Assembly (NCBI RefSeq): GCF_004010195.1
Contig: NC_057714.1
Coordinates: 61,219,868-61,283,867, forward strand
Length of the DNA: 64,000 bases
Direction: 5' to 3'
Source: Chiloscyllium plagiosum
Lineage: Eukaryota
Below the pieces are notes generated by a model, which saw only the letters and a list, made by a program, of their open reading frames with translations, was not told the origin of the DNA and made no database searches. How positions within the stretch are numbered: the stretch's first letter is position 1; every line of letters begins with the position of its first letter. Positions 9,567 through 64,000 of the stretch are shown here, in pieces. A program made the position numbers and the translations under genes.

Positions 9567-11659
9567 ATTTTATTTAAAGGATTGCTACAAACCTTTTTCA
9601 GGCCAATTTGATGTAAGGAGAAAGTTTTTGTTGTGTCCTCAAACCATGTACAGACATGTTCCTGAGAATAAATAGTAATTCTGTTGAAAAGCTGATGTTA
9701 GTTTGATTAGTAACCTTGACTATAGGTTGAATTGACCGGATTTTTATTTTTTGCACAATGTGTTTTATTAAGAAAACTTTAGATGTTTGTCGATATTGAT
9801 CGCAAGGAATACAAGAAATGTACATATAACACCAATGTCAAATTACTTGACATTCAACCAGCAACTAGGGAACATACTTTTCTACCTACAGGTAGTCAAT
9901 GCACAAACATGTACCTTTCAGATCTTGGAGGAGCTTGCACTGAGTGTCGTTCCAGTCACTATATGTCTTATGAGCTAAATCCTCAGTTCTTGAATGGAAC
10001 GGTAACAAAAACATTTGGATATGAAATAACAAATCCAAAGTTAATGGAGTTTCAAGCATTAAATTCAAAAAGAGCTGGAAATATGAGAAGTGATGTATGC
10101 TGTATTAATAAATTTGACTTGGTCTACATATATATCTTTTAATAATCATTCAACCCCTGACACAAACCTTATAAAGTCTGGGAATAGAATTTGAAATGTT
10201 CACTTGTGAAGATCAGTTTGGAGTGCAGCACTGTTGAAGTATGTTAGTGTGCACTGCCAAATTAAGATGCTAATGCTTGGTGAAAGCACATCCAAGTGTT
10301 CCATACAGCAATACAATAGGTCTTATTCTTGTGGAAGAGATGCCTCAGTCTGTCAACTTGAGCAGTATCCAATGATAGATTTATAATTTAGTGTTTATGG
10401 ATGCGCTTGAACTGATTAACCAATTTCTTCATTTAAAAAACTTAATTCTCAGGCTGTCAGCACCATTGTTGTCTATCATTTCCAGTTGTCTGCTGACAAG
10501 GATGGATATGCTACAGGAACCACAGAGGCAGTCCTTCTTGTGATGGTGTTCCCACATCAGTGTAATATTGTCTTATCATCAAGATCTGATTGGCTGAATG
10601 TTTCTGGAGAGAATCAAATACTACCACTGAGGCATAAAGCAGGAGACAATCCAGTACTGGTGGACAGCAGGAATTAACAGTAATGCCCCTCCAGAACTGC
10701 TGCCCCAGTCAGAGGGCTGACTCCTCACCAGCAATGGCAATGCCATCAACAGCAGGGGTGCTGCTGAAAATGCCAGAGGAAGGACAAAGTGGCTCCAGGA
10801 TCTGGTGCCCTTGGAAAGAAGGTAAATTTTACTGGTGATTTTAATCTCTGTATAGTGGATTCATCAGTATCAACCTGAAACTGATGCACTTTATTACTCA
10901 GAACTGAATATCTGCAGTCTTTTTTGTTTGTTGAAGCAAACAGAATAGATAAGCAGGCTTTTCAACCTGTCATTAACTCGTCAGGGCTGCAAATTGTACA
11001 TTTGTGGTAGTTGGTAGAAACTGGTCATGTGATGTCAATATACCAGACTCAACCTTATGCCAAGCTTAGTTAACAGATCAGCCAACATTGAAACCTTGAT
11101 AGAATGGTATAGTGAGGATGAACCAAGTGATGTGGGGAAAGGGAGGAGGAGACTCCCTTTTAACTGGTTCAGTGTAAAATGGCCAATATTGGTTTATTGC
11201 CCATTTTACATCACTGTTGATTTTCATTTCATTCATTGGAATACATAAATAAATTCCAGGATAAACAGGTAACAGAACAGGAGGAATGCAGTTTCAATGC
11301 AATGTTCCATTGTCAAGATCAAGAAACACTGATATCTACATTGGTTTTTGAAAATGTCAGTGCTGTCGTGCTTTTCCCTATAGAAAGCATACGAGGTACC
11401 TAGGTACAAAATTTTAGATTACATCTTTTTCTAATTTATTCCTAAGATTTTGTACCTAGGTATCTTGTGCCTGAAGTGACACAATGGACTGAAATGCTGA
11501 ACCTTTTTTAAAAATTTATTCCTAAGAACCTGTACTGAGGTACGTTTGTACCGGAGATGGTGCTGTAAGTTATGATTGTAAACTTTTCACTGCACTCGAG
11601 TACACGACAATAAATTGAGCAAAGAATGTAATGAAAATTGTGCACTGTGTTAAATTAAT

Positions 11660-14912: not shown

Positions 14913-15210
14913 TCAATAGATAAACTCTCCTGAAATTTCCTGTAAGGTATTAAATGGTTCTTCAAATTTGAAGCGTTTGGAGATGGCTTTTTGGTCAGTT
15001 TTAATGTTTTCTTTCTCAGATTGTCTGCACTGTCCCAATGTGTATGATGCCATGACAATGAGCTCTTCTGTTTCTTGGTTTTGTGTTTCTGATTCTTCCA
15101 AAGCTTTAGATTCAAGGGCATTGGTTGAAGCTTCAGTGACAAATTCTGTTTCATCGCATTCAAAAGCCAACCATGGATGCCTGAGGCACTCCTCAGCTAA
15201 AGCTCGCTCT
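14913..15210 (-). CDS. STK17A: STK17A (DRAK1) last coding exon
   Basis: tttggcag|(E)[14 protein letters not shown]...[26 protein letters not shown]; C-terminus matches recalled STK17A KRFKFEEP...GEFIY. Confidence 0.92.
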
Positions 15211-16397
15211 CTGCCAAAGAAAAGCAGATAATATAAACAAAGGTAGAAAAATCAAAACTACTTGTAAATTCAATCATACTAAAGGCACTGCATGAGAAAA
15301 TGTAGTAGCATGGATCAACATCAGTTGACAGATACAAATTAGACTAGGAATGGGTTTGGAATGAACCATCACAAGAGGTTAGGGATCATTTGCATTTGAG
15401 CAAAAGGAACCTCAATCTTGAATGGTGCTAAACTTCCTATAAACATGAGCAATCAGTTAAGATTCCTTTAGGAGGAGAATAGGGTAACAATGGCAAAATA
15501 GACAACAGATACAAATATGGATATTTTGTTCGACATAAGAAATAGCACTAAGTTTGGAAAGAAAAATAAGGAATGAGAGAATCCACTCAGTGGAATGTAG
15601 AGAGATCAACCAGTTCGAATACATTATTTCCTGAAGAGCTTGATAAAACCACAATAAAAGTCAATAGCTTTTTATGTTTTATAATAAACAGTTACAAAAT
15701 TAAAGTAATAAATCTGTTTAAAAAAGCCATAATAAGATAAGTATACACGTTAGAGCATTATAGATAAGGCTATTAATGTCTTTGAGGGAATGGAACAAAG
15801 ATTAATCAGGATGAGGTTGAAGCTGAAACTAGTTTTGGTAGAAATTATTGGAGATATTTCCAGTGGAGCAGAGAAGCTTGAGTGAAGACTTAGTGGGGGA
15901 GAAAATTCTTGCTGGTGGATTCTCTAATTTATTCCTAGTACATGAGCTGCTAAGGCCAGTATTTGTTGGAATCCCTCAGTTACCTTTTGTGAAGCCAAGG
16001 GGATAAACCTATAAACAAAACAGTGATACTTGAAAGTGAAAGTACTGGTTGCATTGGAGATCCATTTTGAAGTTACAAGTCAGACCAATATGTTTGATTC
16101 ACAAGTTTTACTAGTTTTTCTTCTGAGAAGGTAGTCATGAATCACTGTCTTAAACTGTAGTCAGTCAGGTGTTGGTACACCCATAGTGCTCTTAGACAAG
16201 GAGGTCCAAGTTTTCAACCAGTGACAAGTGTTAATTTGCCATGGTCCATGAGGAGGCACAAGCATTTTTCCTTGTTAGGAAGAGACTAGTGGCTTTATAC
16301 ATTAAGGGACATGACAACATTAAAATGGGGAAAGCAAGGAGATAGATTGTCACAGCTGGTACAGAGATTGAACACATGCACCACACAGTTGATAAGA

Positions 16398-16554
16398 TTA
16401 AAAATCACACAACACCAAATTATAGTCCAACAGGTTTATTTGAAAGTACAAGCTTTGGGTGTGCTGCTAGCTGACTAAGGAGCAGTGCTCTTACTTCCAA
16501 ATAAACCTATAGCCTGGTGGGGTGTGATTTTAACCTTGTCCAGCACCTCCACTT
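16398..16554. mobile_element. Hairpin element, family C, decayed
   Basis: TSD CAGTTGATAAGA at 16386-16397 and 16555-16566; homologous to 26637-26847. Confidence 0.7.
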
Positions 16555-16789: not shown

Positions 16790-17760
16790 CCAAACTCAAC
16801 TCGATCGCATCATCTCTCCCGAATCACCACTGTTGGTAGATTAGCAGCCTGCTTACCCAACATCCAGTACTGCATGAGCAGAAAATTTCTCCAATTAAAT
16901 ACTGAAGCTATTGGTTTTGGTCTTCACTTCAAACTTCTCACTCTCATGACTGACTCTAAACTTTACCTTGAATGTTGACTGAGATTAAGATTAAGCTAGT
17001 TTGTCTACAAACTTCATGTCACATTTGAATGAGAGATGAGCTTCTGACCTCCCATTCCAAATATCACCAAGATGCCGATATCCACCTCTAACTTAATCTG
17101 ATTGATTGTCTCAGCTCACCTGAAACTCTTATCCTGCCTTTTATCTCTAAACTTGACTGTTCCAATACGCTAGATTAGAGTGGTGCTGGAAAAGCACAGC
17201 AGGTCAGGCAGCATCTGAGGAGCAGGAAAATCGACATTTTGAGCAAAAGTCCTTCATCCTGATGAAGGACTTTTGCCCAAAACGTCGATTTTCCTGCTCC
17301 TCAGATGCTGCCTGACCTGCTGTGCTTTTCCAGCACCACTCTGGTTTCCAGCATCTGCAGTCCTCACTTTTGCCTGTTCCAATGCACTGCTGGCTGATCT
17401 TCCACATTCTACCCATTCTAATTTTGGGGCCATCTAAAACTCATTGCCTGTGTTTAGCTGGCAGCAACTCATATTCCCCGATCTCCCCTGTGCTTGATCG
17501 GGAGCCAAGATAGTTGAACGAGTAAAGTGTTGGCATGAAAAAGCTTTTTCCTGTTTTCAAATCTTTCTCTGCCTGCACTCCTACATATTTCTCCAGCCCC
17601 AAAATCTGCAATGTCTGTGCTCTATTCCTGAACAGAATTACGCATTTTCCATTATAACTGCTGCACCAATGGTAGTGTTATCTTCAGTTACTTAGACCCA
17701 AGATTCTGAAATTTCTCACCTACCCTTCTCTGTCTCTTGAAAAATCAACTTCATTGTTCA
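16790..17760 (+). mobile_element. L2-like LINE 3' fragment interrupted by a hairpin element
   Basis: Degenerate ETLI.AF.S.LD.SNALLA.L motif split at 17157-17390. Confidence 0.6.
17172..17373. mobile_element. Hairpin element, family A
   Basis: About 82-bp inverted arms 17177-17258 and 17261-17342; CTGATGA at 17259; TSD CTGTTCCAAT at 17157 and 17374. Confidence 0.85.
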
Positions 17761-18177
17761 AATATTTGGATGTCTAACCTCATATCTTCTTAAGCCTTGT
17801 GCCAATTTAAATCCTTTGGTATCTGAGCAATTAATGCTTTGTGTGTGTGTTTTGGTTTTAATCTTAAATGAAAGGGTGATGATTATCAAGGGTATTGATT
17901 AATTCTTCAAACTAAGCTTCTGTGTGAGTCCAAATATCCAATATGTCAACACAAATACAGAAGCTAACCTGACTGCAATCATTGAAGAAAGAAGATCAGT
18001 AAACAAAAACATTGGCCCCAGAAGTCAAACTCAAACCCTTGGAGGTAAGAAAGTATTTTGATTCTAGGGATATTAAAAATAAACTTGTTATTTAATAATA
18101 ATGAAGGTAACAAATGAATCATTCCATTACAATATGAAGCCACAATATACCAAAATTGAATGCCTAGAAACACCACT

Positions 18178-19588
18178 TAGAATCATAGAGATATACAGCA
18201 TGGAAACAGACCCTTCGGTCCAATCCGTCCATGCCGACCTGATATTCCAACACAATCTAGTCCCACTGCCAGCACCCGGACCATATCCCTCTAAACCCTT
18301 CCTATTCATATACCCATCCAAATGCCTCTTAAATGTTGCAATTGTACCAGCCTCCCCCACTTCCTCTGGCAGCTCATTCCATACACGTACCACCCTCTGC
18401 GTGAAAACATTGCCCCTTATGTCTCTCATATCTTTCCCTCTCACCCTAAACCTATGCCTCTAGTTCAGGACTCCCCACCCCCAAAGGAAAATACTTTGCC
18501 TATTTACCCTATCCATGCCCCTCATAATTTTGTAAACCTCTAAGGTCACCCCTCATCCTTCGATGCTCCAGGGAAAACAGCCCCAGCCTGTTCAGCCTCT
18601 CCCTATAGCTCAAATCCTCCAACCCTGGCAACATCCTTGTAAATCTTTTCTGAACCCTTTCAGGTTTCACAACATCTTTCCGATAGGAAGGAGACCAGAA
18701 TTGCACACAATATTCCAACAGTGGCCTAACCAATATCCTGTACAGCCGCAACATGACCTCCTGACTCCTGTACTCCATACTCTGACTAATAAAGGAAAGC
18801 ACACCAAACGCCGCCTTTACTATCCTATCTACCTGCAACTCCACTTTCAAGGAGCTATGAATCTGTACTCCAAGGTCTCTTTGTTCAGCAACACTCCCTA
18901 GGACCTTACCATTAAGTGTATAAGTCCTGCTAAGATTTGCTTTCCCAAAATGCAGCACCTCGCATTTATCTGAATTAAACTCCATCTGCCACTCAAATGG
19001 CTAGTTCTCCCTGTATTCCATGAGATCTAACCTTGCTAATCAGTCTCCCATGGGGAACCTTGTTGAACACCTTACTGAAGTCCATATAAATCACATCTAC
19101 TGCTCTGCCCTCATCAATCCTCTTTGTTACTTCCTCAAACAACTCAATCAAGTTCATGAGACATGATTTCCCACGCACAAAGCCATGTTGACTATCCCTA
19201 ATCAGTCCTTGCCTTTCCAAGTACATGTACATCCTGTCCCTCAAGATTCCCTCCAACACCTTGCCGACCACCGACGTCAGGCTCACTGATCTATAGTTCC
19301 CTGGCTTGTCTTTACCACCCTTTTTAAACACTGGCACCACATTAGCCAACCTCCAGTCTTCCGGCACCTCACCTGTGACTATCGATGATACAAATATCTC
19401 AGCAAGAGGCCCAGCAATCACTTCTCGAACTTCCCACAGAGTTCTCGGGTACACCTGATCAGGTCCTGGGGATTTATCCACCTTTACCAGTTTCAAGACA
19501 TCCAACATTTCCTCCTCTGTAATATGGACATTTTTGCAAGATGTCACCATCTATTTCCCTACAGTCTATATCTTCCATATCTTCCACT
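18178..19588 (-). mobile_element. Young CR1 copy with internal deletion near 18993
   Basis: 185-aa and 158-aa RT ORFs; highly similar to 1-1541. Confidence 0.92.
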
Positions 19589-19747: not shown

Positions 19748-19927
19748 TCAGGCTCCTTAACAAGCAACGTCTTGATGAAGTCTATGGCCTGTTTGGAGAT
19801 GTTCTCAAAATCATCTTCTGTAAAGCTGAGATTTAACTGGGAAATGTTGAGAAAAGTTTCTTGTTTGTTATCTCCCAGGAATGGAGAAATGCCTGTTAGC
19901 ATCACATACGCAAGGACACCTATACTC
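19748..19927 (-). CDS. STK17A: STK17A coding exon, 180 nt (kinase subdomains IX-XI)
   Basis: tttag|(W)[59 protein letters not shown]|gtaagt. Confidence 0.95.
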
Positions 19928-20013
19928 CTAAACAGAGGAAAGTCATTCTGAGAAGCAGTTCCAACAAATTCAATTACAATCATTTTAAAAGGTTACACTC
20001 GACATTAACTTAC

Positions 20014-20062
20014 CACATATCTGTTGCTGTGCTGATCGGCTCATAATTTAAAATTTCAGGAG
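20014..20062 (-). CDS. STK17A: STK17A coding exon, 49 nt
   Basis: tttcag|(A)PEILNYEPISTATDM(W)|gtaagt; phases fit both neighbours; not in the ORF track. Confidence 0.93.
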
Positions 20063-20964
20063 CTGAAAACAGAAGAAATAAATACATTTTTGGACATGAA
20101 TTTATTGGATGTCATTAAAAGCCAGGGTGCACTGAATGCACCAAATAACTTAGAGTCATACAGCATAGAAACAGACATGGTGGGCCAAAGAGCTGATGTC
20201 AACCAACAAGCACCAAACTGCACTGGCATTATTATGCTCTGGCATTTTATGTGCTCATCCAGATACTTTGTCATACATACAGCATAGAAACAGACCCTGT
20301 GGTCCAACCAATCCTTGCCAAACATGACCCCAAACTAAATTCATCTCACCTGCCTGCTCCTGGCCGATATCCCTCAAAACCCTTCCTATTTATGTATCTA
20401 TCCAAATGTCTTTTAAATGTTGTAACTGTACATGCATCCACCACTTCCTCGGGAAGTTTATTCCATATGCGAACTACCCTCAGTGTAAAAAAAACTTGAT
20501 ACCTACTGTCACCACTCTGTCAGGCAGCACATGCCAAATGTCTATCACCCTTTTGGTAAAAAGCAACTTTTTTCTCAGATCTCCTCTAAATCATTTGCTC
20601 CTCACCTTAAACTTACGCCCTCTGGTCTTAAGTTTAATATGGAAAAGATTCTCATGATTACTCTGTCTATATTTTTCATAATTGTATAGGTCAATCAGAT
20701 ACCTCCTCGGCCTCCTGTGCTCCAAGGAAGACAAATCCAGCCTATCCAGTCTCTCCTTATAACAGACTTTTTATCCCAGGCAACATCGTGATGAATCTCT
20801 TCTGCACCTTCTCCAGTGCAATCGTGCTTTTCTGGAGAGTATGAGGCAACCAGAACTACACACATTATTCCATCTGTGGCCTAACCAATGTTTTATACAG
20901 TTGTAACAAGATTTCCCTGCTCCTATATTCTACTTTCAGCTAATGAAGGCAAGCATCCACTATG

Positions 20965-21106
20965 ACAAAGTGAGGAGTGCAGATGCTGGAGATCAGAGCT
21001 GAAAATGGGCAGCAGGTCAGGCAGCATCTAAGGAGCAGGAGAATCGACGTTTCGGGCATGAGCCCTTCTTCAGGAATGCATGTGCTTTTCCAGCAACACA
21101 TTTTCA
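20965..21106 (-). mobile_element. Family A element with intact hammerhead core
   Basis: 16-bp TSD GCAAGCATCCACTATG at 20949-20964 and 21107-21122; minus strand reads CTGAAGA-A-GGGC tcat GCCC-GAAAC-GTC. Confidence 0.8.
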
Positions 21107-21800: not shown

Positions 21801-21887
21801 CTGAAAATGTGTTTCTAGAAAAGCGCAGCAGGTCAGGCAGCATCCAAGGAGCAGGAGAATCGATGTTTCGGGCATGAGCCCTTCAGG
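21801..21887 (-). mobile_element. Family A single-arm fragment
   Basis: TSD AATTACCTG at 21792 and 21888; hammerhead core partly deleted. Confidence 0.7.
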
Positions 21888-21995: not shown

Positions 21996-22140
21996 ATTCT
22001 TAAGAACTAGTTCTAAAGAAGGGTCACTGGACCAGAAACATTAACTTTGCTTTCTCTCCACAGATACTTCCAGACCTGCTGAGTTTTTCGAGCAATTGTT
22101 TATTGTTTCTAATTTCCAGCATCTGCAGTTCTTTTGTTTT
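21996..22140 (+). mobile_element. Family B single-arm element
   Basis: ttctaaagaagggtcactggaccagaaacattaact followed by the family B tail. Confidence 0.65.
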
Positions 22141-26140: not shown

Positions 26141-26334
26141 AGGTTGAAATCTTCGAGGAGAAAGTGAGGTCTGCAGACGCTGGAGATCAAAGCTGAAACT
26201 TTATTGCTGGAACAGCACAGCAGGTCAGGCAGCATCTAGGGAACTGAAGAAGGGCATGTGCCCGAAACGTCGAATCTTCTGTTCCCTAGATGCTGCCTGA
26301 CCTGCTGTGCTGTTCCAGCAATAAAGTTTCAGCT
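26141..26334 (+). mobile_element. Family A hairpin element with intact hammerhead core in the loop
   Basis: 54-bp perfect inverted repeat 26191-26244 and 26281-26334; CTGAAGA-A-GGGC atgt GCCC-GAAAC-GTC at 26244-26271; TSD CTATTAATAGAAGT at 26127 and 26333. Confidence 0.85.
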
Positions 26335-26636
26335 ATTAATAGAAGTGGCATACAAAGAAGTTACACTCAACTATTATTACATAAAATCGGAGGAAGAGTC
26401 ATTTGACTTGACATGTTAACTCTGATTTCACTCCACAGATGCTGGCAGATCTGCTGAGCTTTTTCCAGCAATTTCTGTTTTTGTTTATTATTACATAAAC
26501 ACTGTTTACGGCTTGTGCTGAAGTATTTTAGCTAATTGAGGGCACTACACACATTAGGAAGGATGTTAAGTCATTAGAGAGAATACAAATGGGATGTAAC
26601 GACAGTTGCTATGTGGTTGAATGCCTTAATTAAGTG

Positions 26637-26847
26637 ATGTGGAGGTGCTGGTATTGGATTGGGATGGACAAAGTTAAAAATTACATAACACCAAGTTATT
26701 GTCCAACAGGTATATTTGCAAGTACAAGCTTTTGGAGCACTACTCTGTTGTCAGGTAGCTACCTGACGAAGGAGCAGGACTTCAAAAGCTTGTACTTCTA
26801 AATAAACCTGTTGGACTATAACCTGGTGTTATGTAATTTTTAACTTT
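26637..26847. mobile_element. Family C palindrome
   Basis: Arms 26670-26758 and 26759-26847 with no spacer; CTGACGA at 26763; TSD TTAATTAAGTG at 26626 and 26846. Confidence 0.8.
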
Positions 26848-27546: not shown

Positions 27547-27673
27547 CCACATATTCAGGTGTTCCCATAATTTCTCTAAGCTCTTCATTATTATTGACTT
27601 GTCGTGAAAGGCCAAAGTCAACTATCTTTATATCTCCCAGAGGTGACACACTCGTCAAAAGGATATTTTGTGG
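27547..27673 (-). CDS. STK17A: STK17A coding exon, 127 nt (DFG and activation loop)
   Basis: cctag|[42 protein letters not shown]|gtaggt; not in the ORF track. Confidence 0.95.
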
Positions 27674-27994: not shown

Positions 27995-29945
27995 AAAGAA
28001 TAAATAAAATTTACAGCCCAGGAACAGGTCCTTCAGCCCTCCAAGCCTGTGCCAATCCAAATCCACTGTCTAAACCTATCGCCCAATTCCTAAACATCTG
28101 TATCCCTCTGCTCCCCACCTACTCATGCATCAGTCCAGATGCTCCTTAAATGAAACTACCATGCCTGCCTCTACTACCTCTGCTGGCAACACATTCCAGG
28201 CACCTACCATCCTCTGTGTAAAGTACTTGCTGCATATATCCCCCTTTCACCTCTTACCTTGAACGTGTGACCTCTTGTTATTGAATCCCTCACCCTGGGA
28301 AAAAGCTTATGTCTATCCACCCTGCCTATACTCTTCATGATTTTGTGGACCTCAATCAGGTACCCCCCTCGATCTCCTTTTTTCTATTGAAAACAATCCT
28401 AACCTACTCAACATCTCTTCATAGCTAGCACCTTCCATACCAGGCAATATCCTCGTAAACCTTCTCTGCACCCTCTTCAAAGCATCCACATCCTTTTGGT
28501 AATGTGGCGACCAGAACTGTACACAGTATTCTAATTGTGGCTGAACCAAAGTCTTGTACAATTTTAATGTGACCTGCCAGCTCTTATACTCAATACCCCA
28601 TCTGATGAAGACAAGCATACCATATTCCTTCTTCATCACTCCATCCAGCTGTTCAGTCACCTTCAGAGTACAATGGACCTGAACTCCCAGATCTCTTTGC
28701 TCATCAACTTTTCCCAAGGCTCTTCTATTTATAGTATAGTTCACTCTAGAATTAGACTTCCCAAAATGCATCACCTCACTTTTGCCTGGATTGAACTCCA
28801 TCTGCCACTTCTCCACCCAGCTGTCCAGTCTATTGTCCTGTATTCTTCGACAGTCCCCTATACTTTCTGCTACTCCAACAATCTTCATGTCATCTGCAAA
28901 CTTACTGATCAGACTAACAATGCCCCCCTTCTAGATCATTTATGTATATCACAAACAACAGTGGCCCCAGCACCGATACCTGTGGAACACCACGAGTCAC
29001 CCTTCTCCATTTCAAGAAACTCCCTTCAACATACTACTCTCTGTATCCTATTGCTCAACTAGTTCTTTATCCACCTAGCTAGAACATCCTGCACACCATG
29101 TGACTTCACTTTCTCCATTAGTTTACCATGGGGAGCCTTATCAAACACCTTACTAAAGTCCATGTATATGACATCTACAGCCCTTCCTATCAACTTGGTC
29201 ACTTCCTCGAAGAACTCTTAAGTTGGTAAGATCCGCACGCATAAAACCATGTTGCCTATCATTGATAAGCCCATTCTTTTCCAAATAAAAATAGATTTTA
29301 TCCCTCAGTACCTTCTCCAGCAACTTTCCCACCACTGGCATCAGGCTCACTGGTCTGTAGTTACCTGGAATATCCCTACTACCCTTCCTGAACAGGGGGA
29401 CAACATGAGCAACCCTGCAGTCCTCCCGCACTTCACTTGTGTTTAAGGATGCTACAAAGATCTGTCAGGGCCCCAGCTATTTCATCTCTCGCCTCCCTCA
29501 GCAACCAGTCCTGGAGATTTGTCCACCTTAATATCCTTTAGCCTACCCAACACATCTTCCCTCCTTATGTCAACATGATCCAGAGTAAACAAACATTCAT
29601 CATGTCCCTGTCCTCAGTAAACACTGATGCAAAGTAATCATTGAGAATTTCACTCATTTTCTCAGGTTTGACACACAACCTTCCCTCCTTATCTTTGATG
29701 CACCAACTCTTTCTCTAATTACCACTTGCTTCTTATATATGAATAAAAGGCTTTGGGATTCTTCTTAATTCTGCTCATTAAAGTTATTTCATGACCCCTT
29801 TTAGCCCGCTTGATTCCTTGTTTAAGATTGGTCCTACTGTCCCAATATTCCTCCAGGGCCCGTTCTATCCTTAGCTACCTGGACCCTTTTCCTCTTGGCT
29901 ACTCGCACAATTTCTCCTATCATCCACGGTTCATGAATCTTACCT
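27995..29945 (-). mobile_element. CR1 RT and 3' end
   Basis: 178-aa ORF (EKWQMEFNPGKSEVMHFG ... LEYCVQFWSP); PGNYRPVSL. Confidence 0.9.
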
Positions 29946-32920: not shown

Positions 32921-33473
32921 CAGAGTCATAGAGATGTACAGCATGGAAACAGACCCTTCGGTCCAACCCGTCCATGCCGACCAGATATCCTAACCCAATC
33001 TAGTCCCACCTGCCAGCACCCGGCACTTATCCCTCCAAACCCTTCCTATTCATATACCCATCCAAATGCCTCTTAAATGTTGCAATTGTACCAGCCTCCA
33101 CCACATCCTCTGGCAGCTCATTCCATACACGTACCACCCACTGCGTGAAAAAGTTGCCCCTGAGGTCTCTTTTATATCTTTCCCCTCTCACCCTAAACCT
33201 ATGCCCTCTAGTTCTGGACTCCCTGACCTCAGGGAAAAGACTTTGCCTATTTACCCTATCCATGCCCCTCATAATTTTGTAAACCTCTATAGGTTCACCC
33301 CTCAGCCTCTGACGCTCCAGGGAAAACAGCCCCAGCCTATTCAGCCTCTCCCTGTAGCTCAGATCCTCCAACCCTGGCAACATCCTTGTAAATCTTTTCT
33401 GAACCCTTTCAAGTTTCACAACATCTTTCCGATAGGAAGGAGACCAGAAATGCATGCAATATTCCAACAGTGG
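32921..33473 (-). mobile_element. Young 5'-truncated CR1
   Basis: 172-aa ORF ending FFTQWVVRVWNELPEDVVEAGTIATFKRHLDGYM. Confidence 0.92.
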
Positions 33474-34210
33474 TCTGAAGGAATGAAGATATACTTCCAG
33501 GTCAAGATGATGTGTAGCTGGACGGAAACTTGCAGGGGATAACATTTACGTGCATGTGCTACCTTTAACCTTTGAGATACCCATAACCAATGACACGCAA
33601 TTTCCTAAGTGGACAATCATACTAGTTAGTGAATGATTGCTGAATATAACCACGATGGAAGGTGATGTTGGAGGAGCCTTGGTGAGTTACTGCAGTGTAC
33701 CCTGTAAATGATACAAACTGCTGCCACTGTGCAATGATAGTGAAGACAGCAGATGCCAGTCAAGACAGATAATTCGTCCCAGTTGGTATCAAAGTTACTG
33801 AAGTGTTGCAGCAACTCCACCCATCAAGACAACTGGAGAGTATTCCATTGAACTCCCGACTTGTTTCTTCTGAATGGTGGATAGGAACAAAATGATATCC
33901 AGCATCTGCAGTATTTTGTTTCTATAATAAGATGGTGGACCTTTCTTGGGATAACTGGAGTTGCTTTGCTTGCCACAGAATACCTACTCTCTGACCTACA
34001 TTTGTAGCCACTGTATTTCTATGGCTAACCCAATTCCATTTCTGGTCAATGCAATTCCCCAGGATATTGATAGTGAGGGATTCAGCAATGGTATTCTCCA
34101 GCATATTGATAGTCAGGGATTCAGCAATGGTAATTCCATTGAACATTAAAAGGTGATGGTTAACTTCTCTCATTCTCTAAGACTCATGGAGCATGTTTGG
34201 TACTTGCTAC
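33474..34210 (-). mobile_element. Decayed CR1/L2-group LINE fragment
   Basis: FNGITIAESLTINILG..IDQKWNWVSH; internal 39-bp tandem duplication at about 34064-34135. Confidence 0.6.
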
Positions 34211-40089: not shown

Positions 40090-40778
40090 GTAGCTCAGAT
40101 TGTGGATCAGATTGTACATTTGCTCGCTGAGCTGGTAGATTTTTTTGTCAGACGTTTTGTCGCCATGCTAGGTTACATCATCAGTGAGCCTCCGATGAAG
40201 CGTTGGTGTTCTGCCCCGCTTGCTATTTGTGTCTTGGTCTGTTGTGGTGAGTGATCTCATTTCTTGTTCTGTTTCTGAGAGGTTGGTCAATGGGGTCCAA
40301 ATGGATGTATTTGTTAATGGAGTTCTGGTTTGAATGCCAGGCCTCTCAGAATTCCTGTGCATGTCTTTGTTTAGCCTGTCCTAGAATGGATATATCGTCC
40401 CAGTCGAACTGGTGCCCCTCTTCATTTATGTGTATGGATACTAGTGATAGTAGGTTAGGTCTTTTGGTGGCTAGTTTCCTGCCTGTCTGTCCAATGTAAT
40501 GTTTGTTGCAGTCCTTGCAGGGTATTTTGTATATGACATTCGTCCTGATGGTTGTTGATACAGGGTCCTTTAAATTCATCAGGAGCTGTTTCAGTGTGGT
40601 GGTAGGTTTGTGAGCTACCATGATGCCTAGGGGCCAGAGTAGTCTGGTTGTCATCTCCGAGATGTCTTTAATGTATGGCAGGGTGGCTAGAGTATCTGGG
40701 TGTGTTGTGTCATCTTGTTTAGGATTGTTGTGTAGGAATTGGTGAACTGCACTAATTGGGTACCCATTGTTCCTGAAT
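40090..40778 (-). mobile_element. Penelope-like element 3' part (GIY-YIG endonuclease plus hammerhead), left arm
   Basis: NVIYKIPCKDCNKHYIGQTGRKL. Confidence 0.88.
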
Positions 40779-40805
40779 ACATTGCATCAGTGCTTTTCCT
40801 CAACA

Positions 40806-41522
40806 ATGTATTCAGGAACAACGGGTACCCAATAAGCGCAGTCCGCCAATTCCTACACAACAATCCTAAACAAGACGACAACAAACGCAGAGACTCTCGC
40901 TACCCTGCCGTACATTAAAGACATCTCGGAGATGACAACCAGACTACTCGAGCCCCTAGGCATCATGGTAGCCCACAAACCTACCACCACACTGAAACAG
41001 CTCCTGATGAATTTAAAGGACTCCGTATCAACAACCAGCAGAACAAATGTTATATACAAAATACCCTGCAAGGACTGCAATGAACATTACATTAGACAGA
41101 CAGGCAGGAAACTAGCCACCAAGATACATGAGCACCAACTAACCACCAAAAGACATGGCCAACTATCACTAGTAACCATACACACAGATGAAGAGGGACA
41201 CTAGTTCGACTGAGAGAATACATTCATCCTGGAACACACTAAACAAAGACACACACTGGAATTCCTACAGGCCTGGCATTCAAACCAGAACTCCATTAGC
41301 AAACACGTTGATTTGGACACCATTTACCAACCTCTCAGAAACAGAACCGGAAGTGGTAACACCTACCGTAACTGACCAAGACACAAATAGCAAGCGGGGC
41401 AGAACACCAGCGCTTTATCGGAGGCTCGCTGATGATGTTACCTAGCATGGTGATGAAACGTCTGAGAACAAACCTACCAGCTCAACGAGCAAACTTACAA
41501 CACGATGCTTAACCTGAGCTAC
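40806..41522 (+). mobile_element. Penelope-like element 3' part (GIY-YIG endonuclease plus hammerhead), right arm
   Basis: TLPYIKDISEMTTRLL; NVIYKIPCKDCNEHYIRQTGRKLATKIHEH. Confidence 0.88.
41425..41466 (+). ncRNA. Minimal type I hammerhead ribozyme motif in the Penelope 3' end
   Basis: CTCG-CTGATGA-T-GTTACC tagcat GGTGAT-GAAAC-GTC-TGAG. Confidence 0.75.
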
Positions 41523-45109: not shown

Positions 45110-45324
45110 GAGAAAGTGAGGGCTGCAAATGCTAGAGATCAGAGCTGAAAATGTGTTGCTGGAAAAGCGCAGCAGGTCAGGCAGCATCCAAGGAACAGGA
45201 GAATCGACGTTTCGGGCATAAGCCCTTCTTCAGGAATCAGGGCTGAAGAAGGGCTTATGCCCGAAACGTCGATTCTCCTGTTCCTTGGATGCTGCCTGAT
45301 CTGCTGCGCTTTTCCAGCAACACA
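45110..45324. mobile_element. Family A hairpin with an intact hammerhead core on each strand
   Basis: 82-bp arms 45152-45233 and 45243-45324 with 1 mismatch; TSD ACAAGATACACAAAAG at 45094-45109 and 45322-45337. Confidence 0.88.
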
Positions 45325-46479: not shown

Positions 46480-48380
46480 GATATGCATAATGTGATAATA
46501 GTAGGGAAATTATAAACGAGACTATTATAAAGTGATTACTGGATATTGTATTTGGAAAATAATTGTCTGATTCAGTCGAGTCAACTTGGTTTAGCGAAGT
46601 GGAAAATCACATTTGAAAAGCCAAATAGATTTTCTAGAGACCGTCACTAACCAAGTGAATACACAAAACTAGTGGATGCGGTGTATTTGGACTTTTGGAA
46701 GGCTTTTGATGTAGTCCAGTAGTGCAAGTTAGTAAACACAGTCAAAGCATGTGAAATTGGGGGTATTACATGAGCATGGATTAAAGATTGGTTGACAGGT
46801 AGTGTTATGAAGGTGTAAGAGGTACTGTACCTTTAAGGGAGTTGAAGAACTTAGAGAAGTACAGAGAGTGCTAAAGTACAGAGAGTGCTGGAGAAGTTAC
46901 AATGTAACTTTTGGTTTAAAGCAGCTAGCACTGGCTGGGTTGCCTGGAGACAAAAATAAATTTAAATTTGGTCAATCAGTTTAAATTATACCCCAAAATA
47001 CCAATCTTCAATCAAGTTTGAATTGAGGATATTGACAATATTAAACAACCAATGAAACAATCCAACGCCTAGGGGTATAAGACCGGGGAAAATTGAATAA
47101 TTGGGGAGGAGAACTGCCAAGCCACCAGCATGTACAGACTGCCTGAAACACAGCTCTCTTAAAAGATACCTTTATCTATCAATGACCTGTGAAACAGGAA
47201 TCTGTAAGAAGAAAATCCATACAGAAAGACACAAAGGGAAGATTCGACAGCTGCCTGGTTTTGAAATTTGAATTTTTGGTAAATCTTAAATCGGGGTTTT
47301 ATCGGACTAGTATTATAAAAGGGAAAGCAAAAGATAGGTTAGAGAAAGGAGTTGTAAAGAGTTGTTAGTAACTATTCTCTGTTAAACTTTAAGAAATAAA
47401 GTTGTTACTTTTTTACTTTAAATTGTTCTTGGCCTCTTGAACTTTCACAGATTACAGCATGGGATGAACCTTTTGTGTGTCAGGTTTAAATTAGCAGAAT
47501 GGTTTACCCGGTGTTGTAACAGTAGAAAGCGAAAAATAGAAATAAAAGGGATGATTCTAAGACTGACAGGCTGTGACTGATGGGGGTATTGCTTGGGATC
47601 ATAATTTATATTAATGATTAGATGTCAGGACCATTTGTAATATTTCCAAGTTTGCAAATGACAAAACTTGGTGGGAATGTGATTTGTGAGGAGGGTGCCA
47701 TGAAGCTCCAGAGGGATTTAGACAGTTGAGTGATTGGCAAGAGCATAGCAAATGGAATATAGTGTGGTTAAGTGCGACACTATCCACTTTGGTAGGGGCA
47801 GAGTATTGCTTGAATAGTGAGACGATAGAGAATATTGATGTCCAAAGTCACCCAAGGTCATTAGTCACTGGAAGTTAGTACATAAGTGCAGCATCAATTT
47901 AAAAAGTTTTAACAGAATATCAGCCTTCATTGCAAGAGGACTCTAGTTCAGGAGTGAAAAGGGTTTGTTTCAATTATACAGAACACTACACCTGGAGTAT
48001 TATGTGCATTTTTACCACTCCCTGAGGCAAGATATACTTACTATAGAGGTTAACCAGATTGATTCCTGTGATGGTTACACTGTCTTGTGAGAAGTGATTT
48101 AGGGGATTGAGCCTGTTTTCTCTGATGGTTAGAAAAACAAGAGACAATTTTGTAGGGACAAAATAGGTGCAAAAGGATGGTTTCCCCTAGCTATGATCTG
48201 TGGAATCAGCAGTCACTGTCTCAGAATAAATGGCAAGCCAGTTAGCACTGAGATGAGGTATTTCTTCACACAGAGAGGATTTGGTTTAATGTGAGAATAG
48301 AGCTTTGAGGTAGATGATTTACCATTCCAGATCATGGATGAATAAGACTTGAGGGCCTAAAAGGCCTCCTGCTACTCCTT
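46480..48380 (+). mobile_element. Decayed CR1 interrupted by a solo LTR
   Basis: VDAVYLDFWKAFD before the LTR and ISKFAND after it. Confidence 0.75.
46803..47521 (+). mobile_element. Solo LTR (719 bp)
   Basis: TGTTA...TAACA termini; GTAG TSD at 46799-46802 and 47522-47525; CCAAT, TATAA (about 47076), AATAAA (47395). Confidence 0.85.
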
Positions 48381-48460
48381 TATTCCCCTGCTTCAATCTA
48401 TTGTATTTGTTAGATGTCAAGTATAGAAAACTAGTTTTTAAAATAGTGCTGCTTTAGAAA

Positions 48461-48675
48461 AGTGGTGGAAAAGCACAGCAGGTCCGGCAGCATCCGAGCG
48501 ACGGAAAAAATGACATTTCAGGCAAAAGCCCTTCATCAGGAAAGTCCTGATGAAGGGCTTTTGCCCGAAACATCGATTTTCCTGCTTCTCAGATGCTGCC
48601 TGACCTGCTGCACTTTTCTAGCGCCACTCTAATCTTGACTCTGATCTCCAGCATCTACAGACCTCACTCTTGCCT
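48461..48675. mobile_element. Family A hairpin element
   Basis: Inverted arms around the AAAGT centre at 48541-48545. Confidence 0.85.
48537..48584 (+). ncRNA. Type I hammerhead ribozyme motif with full stem I
   Basis: CAGGAAAGTC/GATTTTCCTG 10-bp stem I; CTGATGA; GGGC-TTTT-GCCC; GAAAC; ATC triplet. Confidence 0.75.
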
Positions 48676-49343
48676 GCTTTAGACAGGCTCTACAGAAACC
48701 AAAATAACTAGGAAATGATGAGTTATCACCTGAACATAGAAACACGTCTCAAAATAACTTTGTGCTAAATAAGAAAAAAAAAATCCAGGACTTGAATCTA
48801 GTCCTTATTTACAATATGAAAATATTTATTTTGCTGTAGTTGTCTGCCTCGTTTTGTTGGGTAGGTTAATAAAAGCTAGTAGTTGCAAAGGGTTGAGATC
48901 ACTAGTGATAACAGCAGGGCCAATAGCTGACCCTGCCAATGTAACGCAAGGTCAGTGAATTTAAATACACTCCACGTGTTGCAGTGTTTAACATGGGAAT
49001 TAGAGAATACATTCTTTAGCAGCTGTCGTAAAGTATACAACATGGGGAGGCCTTAGGAAATGCTAAGAAATCAATTAAAAGGGATACAACAGTATATTTT
49101 CTGAACAGCAATCAGCCTTTCGAAATCCTGCACTTGGGGATACTAAATGGTATCAACAGAGAAGTGAACCACTAAAGGAACAAGAACAGATTGAAGGCAA
49201 CAAAAAGAGCTATGCTAACTGCTGACTCCCAGTTTGACAGCTGAAGAAGTGGAAATGAGGAGAAGGTGAGAAACTCACTTCAGGATGCTGTCCCAATAAA
49301 ATGACAAATGTACATACCTAGCAGAAGATGCAGAATACAACTG

Positions 49344-51540: not shown

Positions 51541-51645
51541 GAAAAACAAAAACAGAAGTTGCTGGAAAATCTCAGCAGGTCTTGGAGCATCTGTGGAGAG
51601 AAACCAGAGTTAACATTTCGGGTCCAGTGACCTTTCTTCAGAACT
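51541..51645 (-). mobile_element. Family B single arm with near-intact hammerhead core
   Basis: Minus strand reads AGTT-CTGAAGA-AAGGTC actg GACCC-GAAAT-GTT-AACT. Confidence 0.7.
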
Positions 51646-52957
51646 GTCTCCATTGCAAAGACCTTTTTAATCAAAATTGTCCCATTTTGTACATTCAAAA
51701 CAGCTGTAGAGAGCTACATTTTTGCATGGTCCAGGAACTGTTAAAGCTTCCGTATGTGAGTGTACATGCATGGCCAAGAGCATCCTCATGTCACTCATGT
51801 CAATTGGTCACTCCGTCCTGAGCATGTGTCAACTAACATTAAGTTGATGAACAGTGTACAGAAATAATGAATTTAGAAATTAATGAATCACAGGACTTTG
51901 AGTAACAATGACAGCGGAACACTCAGCATTCACTGTGAATACACCACTGAACCACGTTTCAACTTTGAAAGTCTGCACAGATGCGATATTTCACAAAGAT
52001 GTTCGTATATCAAAGATTAATGTTTTACTTTCATCAGCTGTATTGATTCATTGAACTTTTCTTTTTAAAAAAAAGCACATTTTTATTGTCACACTTTGCA
52101 ACATACTTTATTTGACAAAGGAATCCTAGAGGTATGTGAACAGTTTTCATCCGGCTTTACCAAGGGATACCTACAGAAGCTTAAAATGTTGGAAATAGAA
52201 CAATACAAATCTGATTAGCCAGGGCCACGAAACAATAGCTAAGTTAATTGTGTCAACATGAGCTGATCAAATTACCTTCTGGAAAATGCAATTATATTTT
52301 GCTCTATTCCCCTTAATTAGAGCAAGTCACATGACCAGCAAAACGATTTTGAGAGATCATTAGACACATCATTAGGTATGCAGGGAGAACTATTGATGAA
52401 CTGTGGACAAACAGTTGAAGAGCTGCAGCATTCCTCTCCCTCTAATCTTAGAAAATCTCTGAGCCCTTTTGCTTATTGAATCCAACCAGAGATCATTTAA
52501 AGTACCTGGCTTCTGAATTATGCTTACAATTACAAATCAATTAGAATCATCAGTCAGGCTCACAATATGACTTAATTGCATGCACCAGAAGCTACATTTA
52601 TTAATAAACAAGGAGCATTTTTTTTATAGACAAAGAAAATGTATATGCATTGTGCCTGTTTTAACTCAATAAATTAGGTGACAGCCATTTGCTGATTCAT
52701 TTCTCAGGACAATGCCCTGAGAAATCAGATTTAACCTGCCTGGTTTGAATTCTAAACAAAGCCTGGCAGTTAACTGCCACTGATCACAAATTGATACTTT
52801 TTTTTTGGAAACACCTCTACCAGAGTTCATTTGCCACCATTCAGCACTCTCCTCTCATGCAGTATAAAAGTGTTGGTTTTCACTCTGCTTTGATATTCTT
52901 CTGAATTGTCCTAATCAGTGCATGAAAACCTTCAAGAAATGTCTTTTAAACGCAATA

Positions 52958-53116: not shown

Positions 53117-53555
53117 TATTCAAGTTCTGTATGACTAAACGACATTTGAAATCCAATAATATGCATTATAGTTCAGAAGGATCAAAATTATTGAAAACAA
53201 AACCAACATACTGTAGATGCTGGAAATCTGAAAAAAAATTTCTTGGAGAAACTGACTAGGTCTGCAGCATCTGCAGAGAGAGAAACAGTTAACGAGAAAA
53301 CAGAAAAAAGCAGATGCTGGAAGTCAGAAACTAAAACAAAAACTGGTGAATAACCTTAGCAGGTGTGGCAACATCTTTGGAGAAAAAGCAGAGTTAACAT
53401 TTTGAGTCCAATATAACTTCATGAAATAACTCCACAGAGGCCAGTATCCCATCACCAAACAACATTTTATTTATACATGGAGAGTCCTTGAAACTGATCC
53501 AGCTTCGTCAGAGCTCGCTCGCAGTGTGAACAGAATCGCTGACACTCCTGGTCTT

Positions 53556-55859: not shown

Positions 55860-57770
55860 CATAGAGGAAATGGTTTGGATACAGTCAAGATATATTTCCT
55901 CAAATAAGAAAAGGTAGGACAAATAAATCCAAAGATCTCTGGATAACGACGGAAATAGAAATTAAGTTATACAACAAAAAGTGTCCTTATCGCAGATGTA
56001 TACATACAATTGAAACCCAAGCTGAGTTCAGATGGTTTAGAAACAACATGGAGGAGAAAGTGAGGTCTGCAGATGCTGGAGATCAAAGTTGAAACTTTAT
56101 TGCTGGAACAGCACAGCAATGAGAAAGCAAATGTGAGAAGCAAAGTGGGATCATGAAGAAAAACTAGCAGCTAACATAATGGAAAAGTCCAAAGGTCTTT
56201 TATAAGGACATCAATAGTAAAATGATAAGAAAAGGAAGAGTGACATTAATTAGATGGGATTTGCACATGGAGGCAAGAGGCACAGCTCAAGTTTTATATT
56301 AATACTTTTGCATCTGTCTTTGCCTACAACTTTTCTTAATGTTGATAGGCATCAGGACCGGATAGATACGTCCAAGGATACGGAAAGAAATAAGTGGAAA
56401 TCACAAGGGCACTGGCAATAATCTTTCAGTCTTCCCTTGAGTCAGGGGTGGTGCCGAAGGACTGCAGTATTACAACCATTGTATTGCTAAAAAAAAGTTG
56501 CACATTTTTGTCTAACAGTCAGTTTAGCTTCAATGATGAGGAAACTTCTAGAAGCAATCATTTAGGATAGAATTAATAGTCTCATTAAAAAAAGTAAATA
56601 AATTTGGAAGAATCAGCACAGATTTGTTAAATGAGATTTGTGTCTAACTAATTTTCAGGAGTTTTTCTACAGAGGTAACAGAGAGGGTTGATGAGGGAAA
56701 GACTGTTGATGTGAATACATGTGGACTTCCAAAAGGTATCAGCCCTGAGGAAATATTTAGGCCATGAAATAAAGGGACAGTAGCAACATAAATACAAAAT
56801 TGGCTGAGGGAAACAAAGCAGGGTAGAATAGCTTATAGGTATTTATTGGCCTGGTAAAAAGGTTCATAGTGGAGATCCCCAGGACATTGGTTGTTGGATT
56901 CTTGCTTTTCCTGATATATGTTAATGATCTAAATTATAGTGTACAGGTGACAATTCAAAGTTTGTGGACAACACAAAACAAAACTGAAGAGGGCAGTGTT
57001 GAATTTCTAAAGGGCAGTGATATGTTGGCAGAGTGGATGGATAGATAGGTAAATGATGGTATGCTATTTGGCATGCAGGAGAATTGAGATCTTGATGCAT
57101 ACCTAAAGCAGTCATTAAAAGTGGAAGGACAGGTAAAGACAGTGATTAGTAAACATTACAGTCTTACAGACTTCTTGAATCGGGGTACAAGAGCAGAGAA
57201 GTTGTGATAAACTTACAGAAAAATCTGGTAAGACATCAACTGGAATATTGTAGAGTTCTGGGCATCACGCTGTAGGAAGGATGTGAAGGATGACATTGGA
57301 GAAGAGGTCTGCAAGAATTATTCTCGGGATAAGATGCTTTTGTTATTAGGAAAGACTGAGGAGGCTGCGACTGTTTTCATTGGAGAGGAGAAGGTTAAGT
57401 GGAGATGAGATAGAAAATTTCAATATCGCGAAGGGTTTGGACAGAGTGGATAGGGAGACAGAGTGGATAGGGAAAAACTGGTCCCACTTCTAAATGGATC
57501 GAGAACCAGACAGCACATTCTTAATGTGTTTTGCAAACAAACAAAGCAAGTATGAAGTACAGCAGGTATTTAAGGTGTAGAATGTACTGCCTGGAAGCAT
57601 AGTAGCACACAGCCAATTAAGACATTCAAGAGGGCATTGGATGATTATTTAAAGAGTAGCTATGTACAGAATTAGGAGAATAAGCAGGAAATAGACTCCC
57701 AGTTAAAATGCACAGATAGCCACTGCAGACAAGATAGGCTGAGTGGCCTCCTCTTGCGTTGTTAAAATTC
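55860..57770 (+). mobile_element. Old CR1 ORF2 region (family A fragment nested at 56051-56118)
   Basis: Degenerate QHRFVK..CLTNF.EF, EVTERVDEG, CR1 tail. Confidence 0.7.
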
Positions 57771-61409: not shown

Positions 61410-61554
61410 TTTTAAATCAAGGTGGACGATGTTGTTTCGGTGCAAGAAAGTCACACCCTCTAATATCTGCCTCATGAGCCGTTTGACATCTTTTTCTTTG
61501 AAGGCCTCTTCCCTCTCGGCTACACATTGGTTAAAAATTTCACCTCCAGCAGCA
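61410..61554 (-). CDS. STK17A: STK17A coding exon, 145 nt (catalytic loop); upstream exons lie beyond the window
   Basis: ccacag|[48 protein letters not shown]|gtaagt. Confidence 0.95.
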
Positions 61555-62849
61555 CTGTGGAAGAGAGTAAAGAAGTTATTGTAACTCAATTTAAGTGCGT
61601 TGGTAATAAGGATTAAAAAAAAACCCACAAATATGCCCCAAACACTTTCTTTGCTCAGCTACTAAAGATGTACTCCAGAAGGAAACCCCAGCATGACTAT
61701 CACACATCTTTTTGCACAACTCCCTGTTTTCTTTACATTTCGAAAATAAATAGTAACACAATGGTTGAGCATGCCTTGGACACTACACCAGGACACTTGT
61801 TATATTCCTACCCAAGACAGTACATTATAATCATTCATGGTGCTCGTAGATAACCTGCTCACACACAAGGGTAGGATGAGTGTGAAAATCTACCCCACTG
61901 TTATATTCCCTTAAGGAATATTAAGCCAAATTTAAGAACAAAATAATTTGCAATTTTTTTTTTAAATGTTTCAAGTTAGTTAAGAATCTATCATTTGCAA
62001 GCAATACAATGTTACAGGCTGTACTGAAAATAGATCATTGCATCATTTGCCTGTGATATCTTTGCAAATTGTAACACTTCTTCCACAAAGCAAAATGGTT
62101 TTCAAATCTGTTTTTCACTATGTCAATATCCTAATTAACTTCACTGGGCATAATACAGAGATATCATGCAGTGCTATGCTATTAACGAGATTCAGCTAAC
62201 TCTCAACATCATTGTACATTCTGATCTGCTTCCAATTACAAAAATATTCTTCAAGAACTCGAAATATTTCATGTGGAAAACAAAATCTATGAAGTTAATA
62301 GAACTTTTCATTATAAACAATGAGGAGAATAAAAGGTTGGTTTTGGAGTGAACAGTAAATGAAAATTGTTTGCACCTTCACTACTTTGTATACTTTGAAA
62401 CTGTTACATTAATAATAAGGATTGGCACACAAAAATATTCCCCTGCTTATATTCGTGATTCTGTTCAAAGAAATATTGGGGAGATGGGAAAATGGAAAGA
62501 GGTTTTATTATTCAGGTTTAAATATATGGTGTGGCTAATAGTCAGATTGTCATTTATAGTGTAAGTAACAGAATCATAAATTTAAATAAAAGTAGACTAA
62601 AATCCTACCTACATCCTTACAATACCTGCACACAGTAGTTTTGTCTGTCTGTTCAGTTATCTTTCCTGATGTTAAATTATATGTCTATTAACTTAATCAA
62701 GGAAAATGCAAACTAGTGTTTAATTGAAGTCAAAATTGCTTTCAAGTATTATTCACAAATAAACAAGCAAGATGCAATTTATTCCCAATGCTACATGGAA
62801 ATCACAACAAGAGAACTGGAGGCTTAGCCCAACCAGTTGCTATTGGCCA

Positions 62850-62952
62850 TGTTCTGAAGAAAGGTCTCTGGTCTCAAAATGTTAACTCTGCCTTCTCTCC
62901 ACTGATGCTGCCAGACATGCTGAGTTTTTCCAGCAATTGTGTTTTTGTTTCA
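62850..62952 (+). mobile_element. Family B single arm, decayed
   Basis: gttctgaagaaaggtctctggtctcaaaatgttaactctg plus family B tail. Confidence 0.65.
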
Positions 62953-64000
62953 GTCTCTGTTAGGATTTAGCTACCATATGAGCAGAAGTCTTATTCCATG
63001 TTCTTGCTCCTTTTCTGATCTCTTTATGCATTTCTCCTTCAGCTACCGATTTACCTTACTGTTAAATGTAGCAATGCTCTCCACTATGGTGTAATGGTTT
63101 AGCAGAGTGAGCCTATGGGATTGTGACTTAATGATAGTGTAACATCACATGCAGATTTCATGGAGGAGACACTCTGAACATGCGTGGTCAATGTCTGTAG
63201 TGTTAGTATAGAAATAGAAGGCCATCATTTTGCAGAATCAGGTAAGAGACAAGAACACCCATCAGACCAACCAGATGATGAAATATGGTGGCAACAAGGT
63301 GACAGTGCATAGAACTGAAATCTTACAGAAAAGAATCCAAAAGATTCCACAACTGAAAAAGCCAAATCATAACTGTGCAAAACTACAGCAATATCTTCAA
63401 TCTACAGTTGAAATTACGATAGAAAAAGCCACGTCTATGACTTAGCAGCAAGCAGACATTGTGACCTAGGAGCATAGCAAAAGCCAAGTCAATGGCAGAG
63501 CTTCAAGCAGGCAAGAGGATGGAAGCACCACTGCTACTACCCAACTCGCATCCGAGAGAAAAAGGCTTGCATTTGGCGTTATTGTGAAATGACTTGAGAC
63601 TTGCTTCCACAGATATCAACCAAGCTCAGGATTGGAGAAAAACGAGTAACACGCTCTGGTCTGTGCATTCACCCCATACCCCCATTGGAGATGATTTGCT
63701 GACAAAACAAGATGTGGATGGAACGTTACCTTTTCACAACAAAGTCCACGACACATTTTTCAGCTTCCAAGAAAACTTAATAATCAAATGGGCTAGCTTC
63801 AATAAATGGGAGGTAATGACCAGGCGAGTTTAGCTCTTTGATATTATTTTTGGATGAGGCACTGGTGGATATTTTGCAATCCAAAAGATCACTTAACATT
63901 CATGAAGGCATTACCATTCTTACTCCTGAAGGTTTGTAATGGTTCAACAAGACACCTCACCACCATCATTCTTAGGGCAATTGGGGATGGATAATAAATG

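Follow-up and report, generated by a model that had tools for sequence, protein, structure and literature searches.

The segment at positions 48449-48683 of the window, by which we mean the whole 64,000-nucleotide stretch of Chiloscyllium plagiosum DNA analyzed here, is a decayed head-to-head insertion with two arms, whose source was likely the 3' end of a Penelope-like retroelement (PLE). The initial annotation described the 10-bp pairing at its centre as stem I of a complete type I hammerhead ribozyme. This pairing was instead produced by the junction between the arms and does not complete a ribozyme. We hold with high confidence the combined account, in which the two-armed insertion was made by target-primed reverse transcription (TPRT) and the stem arose at the junction. 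The unit is an ordinary copy, one decayed locus among very many with an already published architecture, and the statistics of its family bear on how the inverted repeats of PLEs form and on what the hammerhead does.

The insertion and its surroundings

The insertion lies between two consecutive exons of a protein kinase gene on the reverse strand, in a stretch with approximate bounds of 27674 and 61420 that we read as a single intron of about 34 kb. The flanking exons encode HLDLK at about 61424 and PQNILL at 27673 (Pkinase, E 2e-10). The gene, which we take to be STK17A/DRAK1-like, covers most of the window, with Ser/Thr kinase exons at 14916-15251, about 19800-20070, 27550-27673, and 61420-61560. 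The ribozyme proposed for the forward arm is antisense to this gene, and since the unit is located between reverse-strand exons, the core that the host gene would transcribe is that of the mirror arm, which is more degenerate, and not that of the forward arm.

The unit is bounded by 10-bp target-site duplications of CTGCTTTAGA on the forward strand, at 48449-48458 and 48674-48683, the second of which overlaps the end of the element by 2 nt. The final 5 nt of the first duplication (TTAGA) are shared with the mirror arm at its outer end. With family positions numbered from 0 at the C of CTGATGA, the tail-less mirror arm (48454-48542, reverse strand) is an inverted copy of positions of about +86 to -3 and differed from the commonest subfamily letter at 12 of 77 positions. 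The tailed arm (48543-48675, forward strand) covers -4 to about +130 and corresponds to the pLTR region, at the 3' end, of a Penelope-like element; it was 89.6% identical to the long family copy L051. Its last 43 nt or so (48633-48675, forward strand) form a 3' extension, here called the tail, which is confined to this arm. The arms abut at 48542|48543 and form an 88-bp inverted repeat (48454-48541 with 48545-48632), with the proposed ribozyme piece at its centre. The insertion had been said to begin almost exactly at the 5' boundary of the ribozyme, but the start bounded by the duplication is at about 48454-48459, roughly 85 nt upstream of the junction. The forward arm starts at 48543, four bases before the core, and the boundary assigned to the ribozyme, 48537, falls inside the mirror arm. 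In the flank, a contig of run X2 contained a 14-base insertion relative to the window at 48045, likely a polymorphism.

Several other repeats were identified in the window. Short, partly palindromic repeats of a second family, with a CTGAAGA...GAAA core, were located at 9353-9571, 21997-22140, 26387-26492, 51543-51646, 53297-53412, and 62851-62959, and a third palindromic family, whose core is of the CTGACGA type, at 16398-16468 and 26674-26843. LINE-type reverse transcriptase fragments, presumably CR1-like, were present in several copies (3-1117, 18130-19550, 28355-29464, and 33030-33545). A different Penelope-type family was represented at 40349-41201 and 41429-41466. Two endonuclease-like frames, one on each strand (an internal inversion), are followed there by a hammerhead-like motif that is distinct and has a longer stem II; a related motif was seen at 6595. 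A Pfam search with the window's other endonuclease-like frames matched 0 of 2.

Origin of the central pairing

The strands reported for stem I, CAGGAAAGTC (48537-48546) and GATTTTCCTG (48575-48584), were found where they had been placed, around CTGATGA-A, GGGC-TTTT-GCCC, and GAAA-CATC, and the pairing is real: folding of 48537-48584 alone gave 10 pairs, one of them G-U (z -5.3; 0 of 200 shuffles). The mirror core was likewise present on the reverse strand, and its upstream sequence GGACTTTC formed no long stem. The description as a complete type I hammerhead could not be upheld, in that helix III is absent, with CATC directly after GAAA, and no hammerhead was matched in Rfam. A search of the whole window gave no hammerhead at the gathering score, and the 13 matches obtained for 48300-48800 with a limit of E=10 included none, being only hairpin-type chance matches.

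The 5' strand of the proposed stem (48537-48546, forward strand) is a chimera, to which the mirror arm contributes its inner end at 48537-48542 (CAGGAA) and the forward arm its start at 48543-48546 (AGTC). CAGGAA represents TTCCTG as copied in the mirror arm. The monomer has this hexamer at two places, -3 to +2 and past the cut site, so that a mirror arm with its end at -3 is enough for pairing with the downstream strand. AGTC is the ATTC of the family with one substitution. A junction at -3|-4 would alone give 9 of the 10 pairs, the tenth having been supplied by the later T-to-G change. Alternatively, AGTC could derive from +28 to +31 by short templated copying and a single A-to-G change, another route to the same conclusion of a chimera.

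The sequence GGAAA(A/G)TC was found upstream of the core in none of the 52 untruncated copies with a scoreable core; instead, 48 of these had ATTC just before the core, and their longest contiguous stem was 4 bp. Among 132 scoreable arms, the locus copy was the only one with a stem of more than 5 bp. Exact matches in the genome numbered 10,791 for the family form CTCATTCCTGATGAAGGGC versus 76 for GGAAARTCCTGATGAAGGG, the GGAAA(A/G)TC form, and the AGTC variant CTCAGTCC had 98 matches compared with 10,791 for CTCATTCC, as expected for a sporadic mutation. When 30 of the 76 loci were classified by eye, the strand was derived from the mirror arm in 25, from family upstream sequence in 0, and was other or unclear in 5. 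The unmutated junction CAGGAA|ATTC was seen at 23 loci at least, among the first 100 of 108 matches, and the AG form of the window in 2 rows.

The family accordingly lacks GGAAA(A/G)TC before the core, an outcome that the initial annotation itself had named as refuting its reading. The stem of 10 bp is therefore no ancestral feature and cannot show which arm is the original. The asymmetric centre, which had been taken to mark the forward arm as the primary copy, amounts to one base only, and 6 of the 10 bases of the stem strand belong to the mirror arm. The forward arm does stand out, as the sole arm with a 3' tail, but not for the stem that had been put forward as the reason. It is true that the 48-nt fragment folds with 10 pairs and that CUGAUGA and GAAA are intact, as the initial annotation would have it; with the strand present in 0 of 52 long copies, its bases largely those of the mirror arm, helix III missing, the ACGU palindrome broken by CATC, and the stem gone in context, we regard an original complete type I hammerhead whose stem I marks the primary copy as extremely improbable.

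The context was explored by folding longer pieces. In the best fold of the isolated 48-nt piece, the core was paired with itself, and the open-core form had a weight of about 1%. With 12 more upstream bases (48525-48590), the predicted probability of stem I was 0.00, and in the whole element the hammerhead-like fold was predicted to cost about 27 kcal/mol relative to the arm-arm hairpin. These models predict that the motif is buried in a long hairpin in its context, and that the ribozyme at the locus is inactive.

The forward arm does contain a minimal hammerhead motif (48547-48578, forward strand). It consists of CTGATGA (48547-48553), an extra base A (48554, between positions 9 and 10.1), GGGC/GCCC with the pair G10.1-C11.1, GAAA (48567-48570), and CATC, which is CGTC in the family, with ATC (48572-48574) as the NUH triplet of a conserved core. 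The predicted cut is after 48574, GATT provides the 3' side of a helix I that is no longer than 4 bp, and helix III is lacking, as in minimal hammerheads. The degenerate core of the mirror arm (48512-48539, reverse strand) is altered in stem II, at the CGTC step, and immediately past the predicted cut site. In the 52 long copies, the strands of helix I were ATTC/GATT in 36 and ATTC/GAAT in 5, all 52 had at most 4 contiguous pairs in this helix, and the palindromic 15.2-16.2 step, which corresponds to helix III of a dimer, was CG in 36. At the locus this step is lost (CA on the forward arm, TG on the mirror arm), and the CpG change breaks the ACGU dimer palindrome. Since the family has the CG palindrome and the locus copy does not, the locus is a decayed descendant.

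We also considered selection acting on the chimeric stem once it had been inserted, by which it would have become a new functional ribozyme or RNA structure of the host intron. The stem is the sole one of 10 bp among the scoreable arms, but it is antisense to the host gene and predicted to be buried in a hairpin, the decay of the forward arm is ordinary (8 differences in 77 positions, with a subfamily range of 0% to 22%), and a single substitution in a recurrent junction is enough to produce it. We give such selection hardly any credence. Rather, the locus serves as a caution that the junctions of inverted Penelope arms create perfect-looking hammerhead stems that can mislead ribozyme searches. 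Stems made in this way reach 60 bp, in the copy L230. In L230 (at about position 1500), L207, L215, and L229, the mirror arm stops at the predicted cut site, with the join at CTGATGA. The whole arm pair then serves as a helix I of 15-60 bp, the core being otherwise open; such copies could be accidentally folded minimal hammerheads.

Inverted pairs and end points in the family

The family was surveyed in 141 stretches, consisting of the window, 20 neighbouring and 120 spaced stretches picked regardless of the family, which amounted to 1.46 Mb of the 3.56-Gb genome. It was very abundant, with 247 arms in the sample, 115 of which were left out of the comparison of cores because the core was not scoreable; row L060 was left out of the arm alignment. 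Copies of the same family with differing centres and truncations were counted in the window at 17170-17377, 20969-21078, 21808-21885, 26163-26320, 45115-45324, and 56059-56118.

The hammerhead sits in the terminal repeat of the family elements, and long copies continue upstream via a pyrimidine-rich region into reading frames. Motifs of the RT or GIY-YIG type were recognized by eye in L051, L075, L084, and L088: a Cys-rich linker and a GIY-YIG-like motif are seen in a frame of L051, which belongs to the subfamily of the locus, and of L084, and RT-like GVAMGT and YIDD motifs in L075, of a related subfamily. Pfam matched one of the 4 frames, that of L088, to GIY-YIG with an E-value of 0.005 and 17.6 bits, which is below the curated cut-off of 22.6, and a PDB search with the RT-like frame gave no match. 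Tandem repeats of about 53 bp were observed within the coding region of one element (L119:4204-4410). According to PMC8557442, a Zn-finger-like RT-EN linker is common to Neptune and Nematis, and the Cys-rich linker suggests one of these clades rather than Penelope or Poseidon, an assignment that we infer from motifs seen by eye.

The sample contained 40 head-to-head pairs of arms and 0 tail-to-tail pairs. In 37 of the 40 pairs the tail was present on one arm, and the remaining 3, which were not of the tail/no-tail type, were dropped. The flanks shared at least 10 bases in 29 of the 40 pairs, as compared with 0 to 2 in ten shuffles. Furthermore, the arms of a pair agreed at 83% of the variable columns versus 58% in shuffled pairs (maximum 67%), which argues that both arms share one source. 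With a threshold of 8 nt, the tail-less arm reached further upstream in 13 of the 37 pairs and the tailed arm in 9, and the two were within 8 nt in 15. Each arm held sequence that the other lacked, also in little-diverged pairs (L196, L127, and 26163-26320 of the window). At their outer ends, the tail-less arms had a mean microhomology of 1.9 nt with the target, against a chance level of well under 1 nt obtained by arithmetic and not by simulation; it was 3 nt or more in 9 of 23 pairs and 5 nt at the locus, with 14 of the 37 pairs left out as having no usable target-site duplication or register.

Two arrangements of other kinds were also seen. At one locus (L226/L227, G000:C9:43550177-43550275), two family arms, head to head, enclose a near-perfect palindrome. 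This palindrome, about 60 nt long, does not belong to the family and is possibly a captured filler that was itself mirrored. In L033 (oriented 1248-1626), upstream family sequence is inverted beside a forward 3' end in a non-overlapping inversion, which we take to resemble the twin-priming inversions of L1.

The inversion and truncation points were nonrandom, as the initial annotation had anticipated, and clustered just upstream of CTGATGA. Raw BLAST 5' ends overstate this cluster because the subfamilies diverge upstream; after correction by an all-versus-all upstream comparison, which may overshoot by a few bases, 54 of the 89 single copies that ended between -99 and +60 did so at -20 to +6 (binomial p 2e-20 versus uniform). 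Another 44 of 133 single copies reached at least 100 nt upstream, 18 of the 151 single arms having been dropped because they adjoin N or an edge. The inner ends of inverted-pair arms were at -12 to +6 in 68 of 96 cases, with a reference that began at -12. There was no excess of ends at the predicted cut site (+28) in the unbiased sample, where the cut-site bin contained 4 of 17 (p 0.17) and 4 of 28 (p 0.50) ends. With ends just 5' of the core and no excess at +28, the inserts usually keep an uncut ribozyme.

A footprint of cleavage had seemed apparent at the GGAAA(A/G)TC loci, 19 of 30 of which had a mirror arm ending exactly at the cut site, but that search selected for such ends. In a looser search, of which the first 100 of 1,720 matches were inspected by eye, at least 5 rows (7 including ambiguous ones) ended there, about 12 ended at +9/+10, and other positions of short homology had comparable numbers. 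A splice acceptor as the source of the 5' cluster was not supported, as ATTC without AG was found in 48 of the 52 long copies. In about 2% of one single-cell polyA run, of a library type that cannot show 5' ends, no read covered the unique flanks, and family-like reads were of both strands with no pile-up of ends. Promoters of PLEs are located in the terminal repeat according to PMC2377424 and PMC6765202, which makes the template's 5' end plausible as the stop point.

In the mechanism that we propose, the insertion would have been made by TPRT of the element 3' end. The element protein would cut both target strands 10 bp apart, and one target strand would prime copying at the tail site. The other strand would anneal via a few bases (TTAGA at the locus) and prime on the same source sequence, about 43 nt upstream of the tail site. 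Copying would in both cases stop, probably at the template 5' end or a strong stop, just 5' of the uncut hammerhead, and the two copies would be joined head to head by short homologies. Two priming events, one per target strand, are what we infer from the pairs in which the tail-less arm extends further 5' and from the outer-end microhomology; they agree with the extension of two strands and the two start sites seen in vitro.

A different route, in which the left arm is a fold-back duplicate as initially annotated, was not established. Here a tail-primed cDNA would have reached the template 5' end, folded, and been copied back, with the centres trimmed later, leaving the same chimeric stem. 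The arms of the locus, ending at -3 and -4, are nearly symmetric and fit this route equally well, so the locus alone does not separate the two. The sharing of subfamily variants between arms would also be explained, as would the preference of junctions for short homologies seen by eye. However, a fold-back predicts that the tail-less arm never has extra upstream sequence, and at least 8 such bases were present in 13 of the 37 pairs, little-diverged ones included, so that extra deletions are needed; deletions at palindrome centres after insertion could mimic this asymmetry. Self-priming has been proposed for such palindromes, there on an antisense template, in PMC3846280. We consider the fold-back possible but distinctly the less probable of the two routes.

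It is very unlikely that the palindromic unit is a self-propagating non-autonomous element of the MITE or retrozyme type that moves as a whole. The very high copy number, the similar overall size, and the duplications at both ends would be in line with such an element, but the centres and outer ends vary between copies, short single-arm copies have a 3' end in common with long copies linked to reading frames, and no head-to-tail arrays were noted in the sample. Returning to two-strand priming, we tentatively suggest, as a speculative extension, that the stubs are a genome-scale record of this process, possibly with two RNAs held together by the ACGU dimer and with copying ending at the helix I 5' strand of the uncut ribozyme. 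If so, the minimal hammerhead would be a scaffold or end marker for insertion and not a cutter.

Comparison with known systems

A literature search of titles and abstract openings found no mapping of PLE junctions in sharks. Endonuclease-bearing PLEs form units with a pLTR, an adjacent inverted 5'-truncated copy, a one-sided tail of 30-40 bp, and a short target-site duplication (PMC3846280; PMC8557442). The locus is similar in its head-to-head arms, its palindromic junction, the tail on one arm, and an inverted arm that is shorter by about 40 nt, and its duplication of about 10 bp compares with 8-10 bp in the rotifer examples. It differs in being only about 220 bp, without an ORF, and in the extreme abundance of the family. 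The 5' ends of the shark family are clustered just upstream of the hammerhead core, a clustering not seen in the available parts of PMC3846280 and PMC8557442.

With the minimal hammerheads (min-HHR) of PMC4209133, which also occur close together on opposite strands, the motif shares the type I order, the absence of helix III, the palindromic 15.2-16.2 step, the extra base before stem II, the G-C first pair of stem II, and the short helix I. Helix II is 4 bp here, whereas it is 7-8 bp in the Schistosoma families. Unlike in min-HHR, the palindrome of the locus is lost, with CA for CG, and the 10-bp pairing is made by the junction and is not a feature of the family.

The PAc protein of the Anolis carolinensis Poseidon element extends both target strands, with two internal starts a tail apart, and uses uncut RNA, hammerhead cleavage not being needed for insertion (Frangieh et al. 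2024, PMC11167929). The shark family resembles this system in that its hammerhead precedes the 3' ends by about 110-130 nt, that its 3' ends fall into two classes a tail apart, and that an uncut hammerhead is retained in the inserts; it differs in the Cys-rich RT-EN linker. Finally, non-LTR retrozymes (bioRxiv 10.64898/2026.07.22.740005) are similar in their type I hammerhead, non-coding nature, and kinship with the pLTR of PLEs, but they are head-to-tail tandem repeats, whereas the locus is a single head-to-head unit with a target-site duplication.
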